From a virus (Duplodnaviria; Heunggongvirae; Uroviricota; Caudoviricetes), in the IMG/VR virus record IMGVR_UViG_2874945390_000003: DNA of 32,454 nt. The stretch is one strand, 5' to 3'. Every line of letters starts with the position of its first letter. Within the stretch, counting starts at the first letter, position 1. This document shows positions 15,001 to 18,000 of the stretch, one piece after another. The position numbers were made by a program.

Positions 15001-18000
15001 GGCCTGTAGTTGACGACAACACATATCCGGGGCTATATTCCTCATACGCCAGCAAAATCTGGCGTCGGGATTGAGACCCCGGATGTTTACGGAGCGATAT
15101 GAGACGCGCCCGCGTCTTTTTTCATATTGTTTGCACAGTCACATTCGCGATTTATGGTGGGCTGTGTGGGGGAGCCGAAAGGCTCGCCGGTTTCCGTACC
15201 CGGTAGTCTCAACCCTGCACAGCTCGCCACCAGATTATTGAGACCAGAAGGTGGCGATAATGACCAAATGTACGGAGTTATCGTTATGCTCACTCAAATT
15301 TCTGTCGACACTCTTCCTGCAATCACCCACAACCAGATCCCCGTTATTACAACTGAACTTCTGGCGCAGTTATACGGAACAAAAATCAAAAACATTTCTG
15401 ATAATTTTCTGAACAACACGATGCGATTCGTGGTAGGAAAGCATTACTTTAAAATTGAAAAAAACGAATTACGCGAGTTTAAGAACAGACCCGAAACAAT
15501 CGGGTTAGTTGGTAAAAATGCCCGCTCCCTCATCCTCTGGACAGAACGCGGAGCCGCACGCCACGCCAAAATGCTCGAAACCGATCAGGCGTGGGACGTG
15601 TTCGAAAAACTGGAAGACTGCTATTTCAGCCAGACTTCGAAAAGCGCAGGTCATCACGAGAAGAAAACCAGCGAGCTTTCTGCAAAAGATGCAAACAGTC
15701 TGGTATGGTTGTGGGATTATGCCAACCGCTCACAGGCATTATTCCGCGAACTGTATCCGGCGCTAAGACAAATTCAGTCTAACTATTCCGGCAGATGCCA
15801 CGACTACGGTCATGAGTTCTCGTATGTTATCGGAATGGCGAGAGACGTTTTAATCAATCACACACGAGATGTTGATATTAATGAGCCAGACGGACCAACG
15901 AATCTTTCTGCATGGGTAAGACTTAAGAACAAAGAATTACCTCCTTCACTACATCACTACTGACAGATTGCCAACGCAACGACCCAGCTTCGGCTGGGTT
16001 TTTTATTGCTGAATTTTCAATATGAGAGGACATGACAATGAACGAGCTGATAAATAGCAACGCCATCAAAATGACCAGCATTGAAATCGCTGAGTTGGTG
16101 GGTAAGCGTCATGACAATGTGAAACGTACCATCGAAACGCTGGCTAAAAATGGTGTTATCCGGCATCCTCAATTTGAGGTTTCCGAAAGAATCAATAACT
16201 TAGGGTTCAATGTTCAGTACGAGCATTACGTCTTCGAAGGCGAACAAGGTAAGCGCGACAGCATTATTGTCGTTGCCCAGTTGTCGCCGGAATTCACCGC
16301 TCGTCTTGTTGACCGTTGGCGAGAGCTTGAAGGGGCAACCGCGAAAATCCCACAAACCTTTTCTGAGGCATTGCGCCTTGCGGCCGACCTTGAAGACCAG
16401 AAGGCTGAACTGGAGAAACAGCTTGCTCTCGCAGCACCTAAAGTTGAGTTTGCCGATCGCGTTAGCGAGGCCAGCGGAATTTTGATTGGAAACTTTGCAA
16501 AGGTTGTTGGAATTGGTCCAAACAAACTGTTTGCGTGGATGCGCGATCACAAAATCCTTATTGCTTCAGGTTCCCGGCGCAATGTGCCAATGCAGGAATA
16601 TATGGATCGCGGCTATTTCACAGTGAAAGAAACAGCAGTCAACACAAATCACGGAATACAGATATCGTTCACCACAAAAATCACCGGGCGTGGCCAACAG
16701 TGGCTGACCAGAAAGCTGCTCTATAACGGAATGCTGAAAGTAACAGGGGAGGCTGCTTAATGGCTAACTTACGCAAAGAAGCGCGCGGAGGAAGACGATG
16801 GGTGATGTAAAAGAAAAAGATATCCCCGGTTTTGAGGGTATATATAAAGTAACTGAAAATGGAGACATCATTTCATGCCGTAAATCAAAAAAATTATCTC
16901 ATGGTATTAAACCAGGAGGGTATGCTTTTGTCGGTCTATATCCAGGTGGAGGGAAAAGACCATCATATAAAATGGTTCACAGAATTGTTGCAGAAGTATT
17001 TATTGATAACCCAGATGGAAAACAGGAAGTTAATCACAAGGATGGGAATAAACTTAATAATAAAGTTGAAAATCTTGAGTGGGTAACGCGAGCAGAAAAT
17101 GTGAAGCATGGGTTTGATTCTGGGTTGCTTGTTCATGGTTTTACTCATCACTTCTGCAAACTAACGCCAGAACAAGTGAAATCAATATATAAATCAAAAG
17201 GCAAATACAGAGATATAGCCAAAGAATTTGGTGTTTGTGCGCAGACAGTGTGCAACATAAAAAATAAATCAGCGTACCGACGTTTTTTGGAGGGGTTTGA
17301 TGTTTAGAAGCAAAAAAATGGCTTCAGGCAGTCAGGGATATTGAATTTTGCGTTCTTTGCGGAAGATACGGAGTTCAGGCCGCTCACAGAAATGAAGGGA
17401 AGGGGGTTGGGATTAAAGTAGATGATTGCCTTACTGCTGCGCTATGTGTTGATTGTCATTCAAGAATTGATAATGGGAGAGATATGAGCAGGGAAGAGCG
17501 AAGGGCTGAAATGGATCGGGCCATTGTGCTTACCCTTAAAAAATTGGTTAACAATGGGTGAGGTGTACTGGCAATAGCGGACACTACCATTTGTTCTTTT
17601 TTTAAGCAGCCATCTGATGATATTTTTCCCTGAAGGCTGCCGGGGAGATATTCCCCAGACGAGAGTGACGACGCTGACGATTGTAGAAAATCTCAATGTA
17701 TTCCCGTATTACTGAGATGGCTTCATCCCGGTTATTAAAACGATAGTGGCTCAGGCTCTCATTTTTCAGCGTTCCCCAGAAGCTTTCCATCGGAGCGTTG
17801 TCGTAACAGTTACCTTTACGCGACATTGATGTTTTCAGACCAAACTGCTCCTGTATGACCCGGTAATCGTATGCGCAGTACTGTGAACCTCGATCAGAGT
17901 GGTGGATTAGCCCGGCAGGTGGGCGCTGGCTCCTGAGCGCCATAAACAGGGCTTTACCTGTCAGCTCTTTTGTCATGCGCTCTCCCATGGCGTAGCCGAC

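Follow-up and report, generated by a model that had tools for sequence, protein, structure and literature searches.

The Seg and Mob families of T-even phages are free-standing homing endonuclease genes that cut a neighbouring gene in relatives lacking the endonuclease gene ('intronless homing'); the Seg proteins are GIY-YIG enzymes. I-HmuI of Bacillus phage SPO1 (PDB 1u3e, 174 aa), with an N-terminal NUMOD4 sheet followed by an HNH motif, and I-BasI, another NUMOD4-HNH homing endonuclease, have their genes within group I introns that lie in DNA polymerase genes of lytic Bacillus phages. A P22-like/lambdoid phage offers a precedent in which an HNH homing-type gene seized a resident phage gene's start and first codons. 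YbcO of the DLP12 prophage (PDB 3g27) and HkbD of phage HK620 belong to His-Me finger group 7, which holds DUF1364 and DUF968 (PMC5714182); for members of this group, including the YbcO-like protein described below, nuclease function is putative.

The HNH gene and the adjoining YbcO-like gene analysed here lie in a 32,454-nucleotide stretch of viral DNA (the window), which is identical to Shigella boydii CP026836.1 over the 6.5 kb that was fetched. Taken alone, the locus is rather ordinary and belongs to a decaying lambda-like S. boydii prophage. Its features, from left to right, are as follows.

16032–16760, plus strand: roi/antirepressor-type gene with Rha N-terminal and KilAC/ANT domains (Pfam ANT, 1.6e-33; Phage_pRha, 1.2e-09)
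16760–16788, plus strand: stub of a canonical ybcO/hkbD gene (DUF1364), ATG and codons 2–10 (MANLRKEARG)
16788–16797, plus strand: match of about 10 nt to the 3' end of ninF (GAGGAAGACG), holding the GGAGGA of the HNH gene
16798–17307, plus strand: HNH gene of the I-HmuI type (NUMOD4 and HNH_3), 169 aa, ATG start, TAG stop, intact and free-standing
17300–17558, plus strand: gene of a YbcO-like small putative His-Me-finger nuclease, 91 aa in relatives, frameshifted here and missing its last 5 codons
17312–17318, plus strand: A7 homopolymer at codons K5–K6, a +1 shift of frame compared with aligned relatives, which have A6
17559–18822, minus strand: IS600 (IS3 family), third copy in the window, 1264 bp, with HTH_Tnp_1 and rve ORFs

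The HNH gene and its described relatives

Judged against curated Pfam gathering cut-offs, the HNH protein matches NUMOD4 (PF07463, residues 7–48, 29.3 bits vs a cut-off of 23.4) and HNH_3 (PF13392, residues 58–102, 42.3 bits vs 24.8). Its best relative of solved structure is I-HmuI (E = 1.6e-19, residues 6–124), with the HNH motif residues (..NHKDGNK.NN...NLEWVT..EN..) aligned. The beta-beta-alpha-metal motif keeps its catalytic His (His80) and its metal-binding Asn, EVNHKDGNKLNNKVENLEWVTRAEN aligning with VVDHKDGNKDNNLSTNLRWVTQKIN of 1u3e, and these residues are invariant in the alignment of HNH relatives. The protein also matches phrog_59 (9e-51), shares 96% amino acid identity with WP_001000608-type proteins of E. 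coli prophages, and has a helix-turn-helix-like C-terminal tail; I-BasI is among its tblastn matches. The homing-endonuclease hallmarks claimed in the initial annotation hold. A scan of species-representative genomes yielded distant homologues of at most 48% identity from unrelated phyla and one 60% match over 52 residues. Compared with E. coli alleles, the gene differs synonymously in 12–15 codons and non-synonymously in 6, a pattern that speaks for selection on it. Five amino acid changes (P76Q, T99A, A102V, N116T and I167F) are private to the S. boydii protein, and its activity is therefore uncertain.

The gene has its own start and stop codons outside any intron or intein, and a Shine-Dalgarno-like GGAGGA lies 5 nt before its ATG. 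Thus, unlike I-HmuI and I-BasI, which it resembles in length and domain order, it is free-standing, without intron RNA, between protein-coding genes of a temperate enterobacterial prophage. A group I intron was considered and rejected, as positions 16000–17700 gave no Rfam match at E ≤ 1 and the stub, the HNH gene and the gene after it leave no non-coding space that could hold a ribozyme. An intein or a split ybcO was likewise rejected, because the downstream 91-aa gene has a complete N-terminus of its own and occurs by itself in the loci examined from Salmonella, Raoultella and Serratia. These comparisons support the assignment as a predicted free-standing homing-type endonuclease gene. It resembles the T-even Seg and Mob genes in standing alone between conserved genes, in its patchy presence among close relatives, in co-inheritance with a neighbour and in the existence of degenerate copies. 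It differs from them in its temperate lambdoid host, in being HNH/NUMOD4 where Seg is GIY-YIG, and in the neighbour that it carries, which is a strongly diverged paralogue of the displaced gene (29% identity over 55 aa) and not a near-identical allele.

The left joint, the YbcO-like partner and the distribution of the pair

The upstream neighbour is roi, as in phages HK620 and H-19B, and the window copy has 92–95% nucleotide identity to roi of H-19B, HK620 and others. The remnant of hkbD that follows at 16760–16788, directly upstream of the HNH gene, had been overlooked in the initial annotation. It aligns with HK620 hkbD (MVNLRKEARGRECQV...) as far as GCGCGCGG and diverges beyond, its frame running on, out of frame, to a TAA at 16808–16810 that overlaps the HNH start. 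The short ninF match marks the joint of an 'Ec042-type' arrangement of ninF and HNH with hkbD codon 10; the HNH gene of E. coli 042, phage Louie and 19 IMG/VR loci has its ATG inside the ninF 3' end (...GAGGAAGAAGACGATG), with the ninF stop a few bases on. The same hkbD-stub junction occurs in E. coli QML220601 and in two IMG/VR loci (L094 and L095). Homology to HK620 stops at hkbD codon 10 and, in QML220601, returns at the rusA start. The 10-codon stub and the ninF end at the left joint show that the HNH and YbcO-like genes replaced hkbD together, as a unit, so that HNH was not the sole invader of the locus.

Most relatives at 60–74% identity carry 12–18 YbcO N-terminal codons (MANLRKEARGRECQV...) fused in frame to the endonuclease, and have thus done with ybcO what the P22-like/lambdoid gene did with its host gene; that precedent concerns another operon and another host gene, and the window further has an out-of-frame stub and an HNH gene that starts at its own ATG. 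The stub comprises 3 codons in K. aerogenes and 10 out-of-frame codons in the window, and there is none in Ec042-type loci. Its divergence is about equal to that of the enzyme, and the in-frame stubs could represent a single ancient fusion co-diverging with it; the out-of-frame 10-codon junction is the only one that points clearly to a separate joint event.

As the initial annotation had it, the HNH gene ends where the YbcO-like gene begins: the two overlap by 8 nt at the HNH stop (GATGTTTAG), as in relatives in which both genes are annotated, and the YbcO-like ATG is at 17300–17302, one base before the position implied earlier. The YbcO-like protein scores below the gathering cut-offs of YbcO (PF07102, 18.9 vs 29.9 bits) and DUF968 (PF06147, 19.5 vs 27.8 bits), and 21 of 23 members of its family match both at E ≤ 0.01 (best E-values 9.1e-05 and 1.8e-06, respectively). 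At least 380 homologues of the YbcO-like protein are available. Searched against the PDB by sequence, the 91-aa protein gave nothing significant as a single sequence and E = 0.12 to 3g27 as a profile. By fold comparison it conforms to the YbcO fold, a treble-clef zinc site with a His-Me finger, and residues C17, C20, H29, N31, C49, C52, H53 and D57 are invariant in the family. It differs from canonical YbcO/HkbD in having CX2C, not CX7C, at the first Cys pair.

The YbcO-like gene normally stands directly upstream of rusA, and in lambdoid nin regions of relatives it is placed upstream of rusA or Q. Thirty-seven E. coli genomes have the region: 33 with HNH and YbcO-like genes, three with the YbcO-like gene alone (at 99.6% nucleotide identity) and one in which HNH is internally deleted by 330 bp. 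This in-frame deletion, seen in AH19B041 and IMG/VR locus L108, leaves a 59-aa NUMOD4-only ORF. An upstream HNH gene is absent from 58 of the 80 IMG/VR loci with a YbcO-like gene, and the order in the examined Salmonella, Raoultella and Serratia loci is ninF, YbcO-like gene, rusA. The HNH gene, being missing from some relatives, is not a conserved resident of this position. Where the pair is present, in prophages of Escherichia, Morganella, Salmonella, Citrobacter and Klebsiella, it has the same overlap and varying flanks: DNA methylase-HNH-91aa-Q in Salmonella, DUF1367-HNH-91aa-Q in Citrobacter and K. aerogenes, and a second type of context in E. coli. Pairwise identities of HNH and its partner are correlated (r = 0.86 over 28 non-independent pairs), an apparent co-divergence that spans at least five genera. 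The comparisons indicate that the pair is an old two-gene cassette and that HNH is a long-standing partner of the YbcO-like gene; no description of the pair was found in the literature.

Homing and its alternatives

YbcO-like genes without HNH, together with deleted HNH alleles, form the pattern of a free-standing homing endonuclease gene. We consider it probable, though far from certain, that a mobile cassette of two genes, a homing HNH gene and a YbcO-like gene, spread by homing and survives here as a relic in the nin (delayed-early) region of a lambdoid S. boydii prophage. The HNH enzyme would be made from the pR transcript during lytic growth and would nick or cut an HNH-less ybcO-family allele in a lambdoid phage that shares the cell, as a resident or by co-infection; judging from the position of HNH and the ybcO stubs, it would probably do so near the 5' end of the ybcO-family gene. 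Recombinational repair would then copy the HNH gene plus the adjoining YbcO-like gene, the latter presumably uncleaved. More tentatively, the pair may be a self-contained 'target-replacement' homing cassette. Its endonuclease would cut canonical ybcO/hkbD in the first 30–50 nt, and repair would put in the endonuclease and a diverged, cleavage-immune, function-restoring paralogue, while the 5' stub (10 codons here, 12–18 elsewhere) would mostly be co-opted as start and N-terminus of the endonuclease.

Among the loci compared no strictly isogenic 'empty site' was found, and a degenerate DNA pattern for the ybcO stub of the Citrobacter-type context, intended to recover its HNH-less counterpart, matched nothing in IMG/VR. 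Upstream of the three E. coli loci without HNH lies another ninF variant, and mosaic loss or module exchange is therefore indistinguishable from homing there. An unrelated HNH_3 gene sits on the other side of the YbcO-like gene in Salmonella prophages, and the survey flags the ninF-ybcO-rusA interval as a hot spot settled by at least three unrelated HNH genes.

A working partnership, instead of pure selfishness, would also account for the tight, conserved overlap of the two genes and for their co-divergence. HNH would then be a domesticated partner of the YbcO-like nuclease, for example with both acting alongside RusA on replication or recombination intermediates, and the module would have been moved by lambdoid mosaic recombination. 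After every HNH examined of the clade (at least 60% identity) there is indeed a 91-aa YbcO-like gene, which overlaps it at a conserved GGAGG...ATG junction; the differences within the HNH gene are mostly synonymous; and immediately downstream of a 56%-identical relative (L102) is a small ORF, rich in Cys and His, with motifs like those of a His-Me-finger nuclease. We nevertheless regard domestication as unlikely. The YbcO-like gene is common without HNH, both in IMG/VR and in the three E. coli genomes, and persists beside internally deleted HNH alleles, and so does not need it; among characterised relatives, those nearest to HNH are homing endonucleases (I-HmuI, I-BasI and many phage genes so annotated); and the unrelated HNH_3 gene on the other flank in Salmonella prophages argues for a hot spot of selfish insertion.

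Plain mosaicism without endonuclease activity, in which one ancient illegitimate recombination set HNH between the ybcO start and a diverged ybcO paralogue and homologous recombination in conserved nin genes later spread the arrangement, is in keeping with the nin regions of lambdoid phages as classic mosaics with joints at gene boundaries (PMC2629481), with the Ec042-type left joint, which lies where the hkbD ATG is expected and overlaps the ninF 3' end, and with the failure to find an isogenic empty site, but it is improbable given at least two different left junctions within the first 10–18 ybcO codons, a cassette between unrelated flanks, recent presence/absence at 99.6% identity of the adjoining gene, and fetched HNH ORFs that are mostly intact, with few internal deletions and mostly synonymous differences from E. 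coli alleles.

Frameshift, IS600 and the decay of the prophage

With A7 at 17312–17318, the frame from the YbcO-like ATG ends after 14 codons at a stop at 17342–17344, and the Cys/His domain (17319–17558) is in a different frame without a usable start codon. The run had been reported as one A too long, and the comparison agrees: A6 is found in all 57 other fetched loci with the motif (E. coli, Morganella, IMG/VR contigs and three sister assemblies), a tally in which some IMG/VR contigs were fetched twice. A7 is confined to the window, its probable source CP026836.1 (L008) and two further Logan assemblies (L010 and L012). All S. boydii assemblies that reach the junction share the IS600 joint, and the run is A7 in three of them and A6 in the three others (L009, L011 and L013), from which the window differs over 1.4–3.8 kb by this single A only. 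Run SRR4176997 is among those assembled with A6.

That these otherwise identical assemblies read A6 could also mean that A7 is an assembly or sequencing error in the homopolymer and that the gene is really in frame and merely clipped by IS600; CP026836.1 is a finished genome, for which homopolymer miscounts are a risk if it was assembled from long reads. An error is very unlikely, because A7 occurs in two independent Logan assemblies of public runs (SRR4180506 and ERR200293, with the identical contig in 3 and 5 samples, respectively) and short-read assemblies, as we assume these to be, rarely err at runs of 6–7 nt. A7 is most likely genuine and a late polymorphism among strains; IS600 had already inserted when the frameshift arose, and the lineage is not fixed for it.

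IS600, whose left end (TGAGGTGTACTGG...) starts at 17559, replaces the last five YbcO-like codons (RVFVQ*) and supplies an in-frame TGA. The five residues lost are non-conserved, and the 86-aa protein encoded in A6 strains retains all the invariant residues despite the clip. Of the 'doubly damaged' gene of the initial annotation, both the frameshift and the clip are therefore real, and the harm done by IS600 was overstated. The element has TG...CA termini (TGAGGTG... and ...CCTCA); over its first 300 nt it matches the copies at 341 and 11247 with 100% identity, and all three share the same right end; its ORFs contain HTH_Tnp_1 and rve domains, and an identical orfB of another copy lies at 384–1202. 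The copy at 17559–18822 lacks a 3-bp target duplication (flanks GGG|...|CTG), whereas copy 2 at 11247 has one (TAT|...|TAT), which implies that the joint marks a later IS-mediated rearrangement or deletion that took rusA and the genes found beyond it in relatives. No rusA start was found anywhere in the window, and ninH, Q and lysis genes were absent from the downstream genes scanned. Elsewhere in the window, a DnaB gene with weak, below-threshold Hint and LAGLIDADG matches is interrupted by IS600, and there are transposases of the IS3 (IS600, three copies), IS66 and IS110 families, which bears out the layered invasion by selfish elements that had been proposed.

In S. boydii, IS600 came first, clipping five codons of the YbcO-like gene and severing it from rusA, and A6-to-A7 slippage later inactivated the gene in some strains. 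Although the HNH ORF is intact, the cassette would no longer be able to spread from this IS-riddled prophage. The window thus documents prophage decay in Shigella, IS600 clipping first and homopolymer slippage next, which is mostly tidy bookkeeping, and the frameshift is a polymorphism among strains, not a fixed lesion. The wider comparison defines a conserved cassette of an HNH and a YbcO-like gene, present in lambdoid prophages of five or more genera, whose left edge retains pieces of the displaced ybcO. It makes the 5' end of ybcO-family genes a candidate target of an uncharacterised homing endonuclease; the E. coli phages Louie and Dewey, which carry HNH, and HK620, which carries hkbD, can be grown. 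The cassette may be an example of a homing element that brings a replacement for the gene it destroys.

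Prophage context and identity of the gene pair

The window is a lambdoid prophage with many insertion sequences, and its positions 13798-20307 were identical to the chromosome CP026836.1 in a sequence comparison (Shigella boydii, species name taken from PMC12817139). Gene order runs from an integrase fragment through a YqaJ-type exonuclease, RecT, a cI-like repressor, cII and O to an IS600-cut DnaB gene, ninB, a Gp49/HTH pair, a P22-antirepressor-like gene and roi. IS600 and part of an IS66 element come after the HNH region, followed by genes for baseplate and tail fibres, among which lies an IS110-family insertion, and by ipaH.

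Features of the window
341-1604: IS600, copy 1
4003-4686, minus strand: Nmad5 (nucleotide-modification-associated domain 5) gene, early-left region
6599-6940, minus strand: DUF3024 gene, early-left region
9616-13363: DnaB-type helicase gene
11247-12510: IS600, copy 2, interrupting the DnaB gene
14337-15045, minus strand: toxin-antitoxin-like Gp49 (HigB-like) and HTH_3 pair, nin region, between ninE and the P22-antirepressor-like gene
16760-16788: remnant (stub) of the canonical ybcO/hkbD start
16798-17307: HNH gene (NUMOD4 and HNH_3)
17300-17558: YbcO-like gene
17559-18822: IS600, copy 3
29148-30791, minus strand: ipaH-type gene (LRR and NEL E3 ligase), end of the tail-fibre region

Such a position is typical of ipaH copies on the chromosome that lie in remnants of Shigella prophages. 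In the DnaB gene, Hint and LAGLIDADG matches, both weak and below threshold, lie between the N- and C-terminal helicase parts and suggest an intein.

The HNH gene, identified in the initial annotation as a free-standing homing-type endonuclease gene, proved to be a 169-aa ORF that exceeds the Pfam cut-offs for HNH_3 and NUMOD4, was assigned to phrog_59 ('HNH endonuclease') and matched I-HmuI, a homing endonuclease encoded in an intron (1u3e, E=1.6e-19), in an alignment that pairs the HNH motif residues. Its TAG stop overlaps the ATG of the YbcO-like gene (17300) by 8 nt. The ORF is intact, carries five private substitutions and has 12-15 synonymous versus 6 non-synonymous codon differences to E. 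coli alleles; the element is nevertheless stranded in a defective, IS-broken prophage.

Deletion of one A from the run at 17312-17318 restores the YbcO-like frame, as the initial annotation had proposed, and yields MFRSKKWLQAVRDIEFCVLCG...NNG, 86 residues identical to WP_000490061.1, a 91-aa 'hypothetical protein' found annotated in E. coli prophages at the corresponding position. The protein matches Pfam YbcO and DUF968, in each case below cut-off, and has 29% identity over 55 residues to HkbD of phage HK620 (BLASTP); phrog_131 contains both proteins. These matches agree with His-Me finger 'group 7' (DUF1364 and DUF968), whose members adjoin rusA, Q and antirepressors (PMC5714182), and 'ybcO-like' is a fair label for a protein that has diverged within the YbcO fold and is not a Pfam-level member. 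Invariant residues of the family are W7, C17, C20, H29, N31, C49, C52, H53, D57 ... G86. The segment 17319-17558 is 100% identical at the DNA level to E. coli 042, E. coli QML220601 and phage Louie and 99.6% to the HNH-less RM8082; for the HNH gene (16798-17299), 18-21 of 170 codons differ between the window and those genomes. Identity switches at the A-run (codon 6/7), pointing to a recombination joint or an unusual constraint there.

Decay by IS600 and a frameshift

All three IS600 copies have the same orientation and identical right ends; their first 300 nt are also the same, except that copy 1 has a single deviating base at its left end. Only copy 2 is flanked by a 3-bp target duplication (TAT/TAT, clean); the flanks of copy 1 (GTT/TAT) and copy 3 (GGG/CTG) are unmatched, pointing to IS600-mediated deletions or recombination in which the rusA-to-head region was lost and the integrase truncated. 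As the initial annotation had seen, IS600 replaced the 3' end of the YbcO-like gene: the element end TGAGGTGTACTGG starts at 17559, takes the place of the five terminal codons (RVFVQ*) and provides a TGA stop in frame. IS600 separated the gene from its usual downstream neighbours: copy 3 lacks a target duplication, rusA was not found anywhere in the window, and no ninH, Q or lysis genes were among the downstream ORFs scanned against Pfam.

The A-run is A6 in all 57 other fetched loci with the motif, including QML220601, 042 and Louie. Among six assemblies found by exact look-up of the HNH protein, A7 occurs in CP026836.1 (identical to the window and probably its source) and in Logan SRR4180506 and ERR200293, and A6 in GCA_003572455.1, GCA_043245315.1 and Logan SRR4176997. 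The IS600 joint is common to all of these that reach the junction, and over 1.4-3.8 kb all show no other difference from the window. This makes A7 most likely a genuine polymorphism, younger than the IS600 insertion; a sequencing artefact is unlikely and the extra A is probably not a single-assembly error, because two further assemblies also show it. The 86-aa product of the gene in A6 strains retains all of the family's invariant residues, so the IS600 truncation alone may be harmless to the protein.

A patchily distributed cassette and its ybcO stubs

The region was present in 37 of 5,426 complete E. coli genomes. Both genes occur in 33 of these, one has lost 330 bp of HNH in frame, with a 59-aa NUMOD4-only ORF remaining, and three have the YbcO-like gene without HNH, their DNA being 99.6% identical from codon 7 on behind a different ninF variant. 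The upstream HNH gene is present in 22 of 80 IMG/VR YbcO-like loci and absent from the other 58 (Salmonella-like, 76-80% identical), and hence is not a conserved resident. An overlapping 91-aa YbcO-like gene follows every examined HNH gene of the clade (at least 60% identity) in varying flanks: HNH-91aa-rusA after various upstream genes in Morganella, DNA methylase-HNH-91aa-Q in Salmonella, DUF1367-HNH-91aa-Q in Citrobacter and K. aerogenes, and HNH-91aa-rusA in a second E. coli type. The Salmonella, Raoultella and Serratia genomes examined have the order ninF-YbcO-like-rusA. Pairwise identities of HNH and partner correlate (r=0.86, 28 non-independent pairs), and HNH-less YbcO-like genes are interleaved with paired ones. 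The two genes therefore behave as a single cassette of long standing, which gains or loses its endonuclease half.

Further endonuclease genes occur nearby. Seven of the 58 HNH-less loci (L187, L197, L202, L206, L217, L226, L231), and also L023 (2294-2791), all Salmonella-type prophages, carry an unrelated 165-aa HNH_3 gene (21% identity to the window HNH) between the YbcO-like gene and rusA; two copies are broken, being split into two frames in L202 and L206, where the gene appears to be decaying. In several phage contigs from E. coli (IMG/VR L092, L108, L167, L174), ninF is interrupted ~0.2-1.2 kb before the YbcO-like gene by a third gene of HNH_3 type, which has 36% identity to the Salmonella-type one. 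The resulting order is ninF'-HNH_3-'ninF-HNH-YbcO-like, with two different endonuclease genes stacked within ~1.5 kb. In Morganella prophages L016, L018 and L019 (3325-4455), two genes downstream of the cassette, a 376-aa ORF with HNH_3, DUF1133 and antiterminator-Q matches is apparently another in-frame fusion of HNH and a resident gene. In L102 (2935-3309), a more distant HNH relative (56% identity) immediately precedes a small Cys/His-rich ORF (CIVC...EIHH...CPTHHR), then a 184-aa ORF; judged by sequence, the motifs of the small ORF resemble those of a small His-Me-finger nuclease, and the link of this endonuclease lineage to small nuclease genes may reach beyond the 91-aa family.

The initial annotation described the window sequence correctly and overlooked the stub. 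Directly after the roi stop, where HK620 and relatives have canonical ybcO/hkbD, ATGGCTAACTTACGCAAAGAAGCGCGCGG (16760-16788) encodes MANLRKEARG, the first 10 codons of that gene. Homology to HK620 ends at the stub and resumes at the rusA start in QML220601, which shares the junction with the window and two IMG/VR contigs. Between stub and HNH ATG, GAGGAAGACG matches the 3' end of ninF, within which the HNH ATG lies in E. coli 042, Louie and 19 IMG/VR contigs. Together, the ninF match and the homology break at codon 10 indicate that the pair originated in a ninF-HNH context and was joined illegitimately to hkbD codon 10, displacing the rest of hkbD.

Most HNH relatives (60-74% identity) open with 12-18 residues of a YbcO N-terminus and continue in frame into the NUMOD4 start (DI.GFEGRY), for example MANLRKEARGRECQV, MSKLTKEARGRDCLIRV and MKNADLTKQARGRECTVG. 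The stub is 10 codons and out of frame in the S. boydii type, only MKN in K. aerogenes (upstream context as in Citrobacter) and absent from the E. coli 042 type. A precedent is gene 31 of epsilon34, in which an HNH homing gene is joined to the beginning of a gene resident in the phage (PMC2629481). The stubs show that the endonuclease lineage landed inside the first 10-18 codons of canonical ybcO repeatedly, or at least twice, which suggests that the putative HNH cleavage site lies there.

Proposed homing and its alternatives

Gene identities, cassette structure, hkbD replacement, patchy distribution, decay alleles and the order of IS600 and A-run events are shown by the tool results. For spread, HNH would be expressed alongside the nin genes in lytic growth and would nick or cut ybcO-family alleles that lack HNH and belong to other lambdoid genomes sharing the cell. 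HNH and the adjacent, uncut YbcO-like gene would then be copied together by recombinational repair; where homology existed on one side only (rusA or Q), the other would be sealed illegitimately, which would create stubs. Pure mosaicism, with no endonuclease action, is a less likely but possible alternative, since no isogenic empty site was found among the loci compared. A functional partnership of the two proteins is possible given their conserved gene overlap and co-divergence, but the many YbcO-like genes with no HNH, or with a deleted HNH allele beside them, weaken this reading.

The initial interpretation of layered selfish-element invasion is upheld. As a free-standing gene of the HNH homing type and as a case of Shigella prophage decay, the locus is ordinary; to this the analysis adds a conserved cassette, the ybcO stubs and a testable prediction of the endonuclease target.
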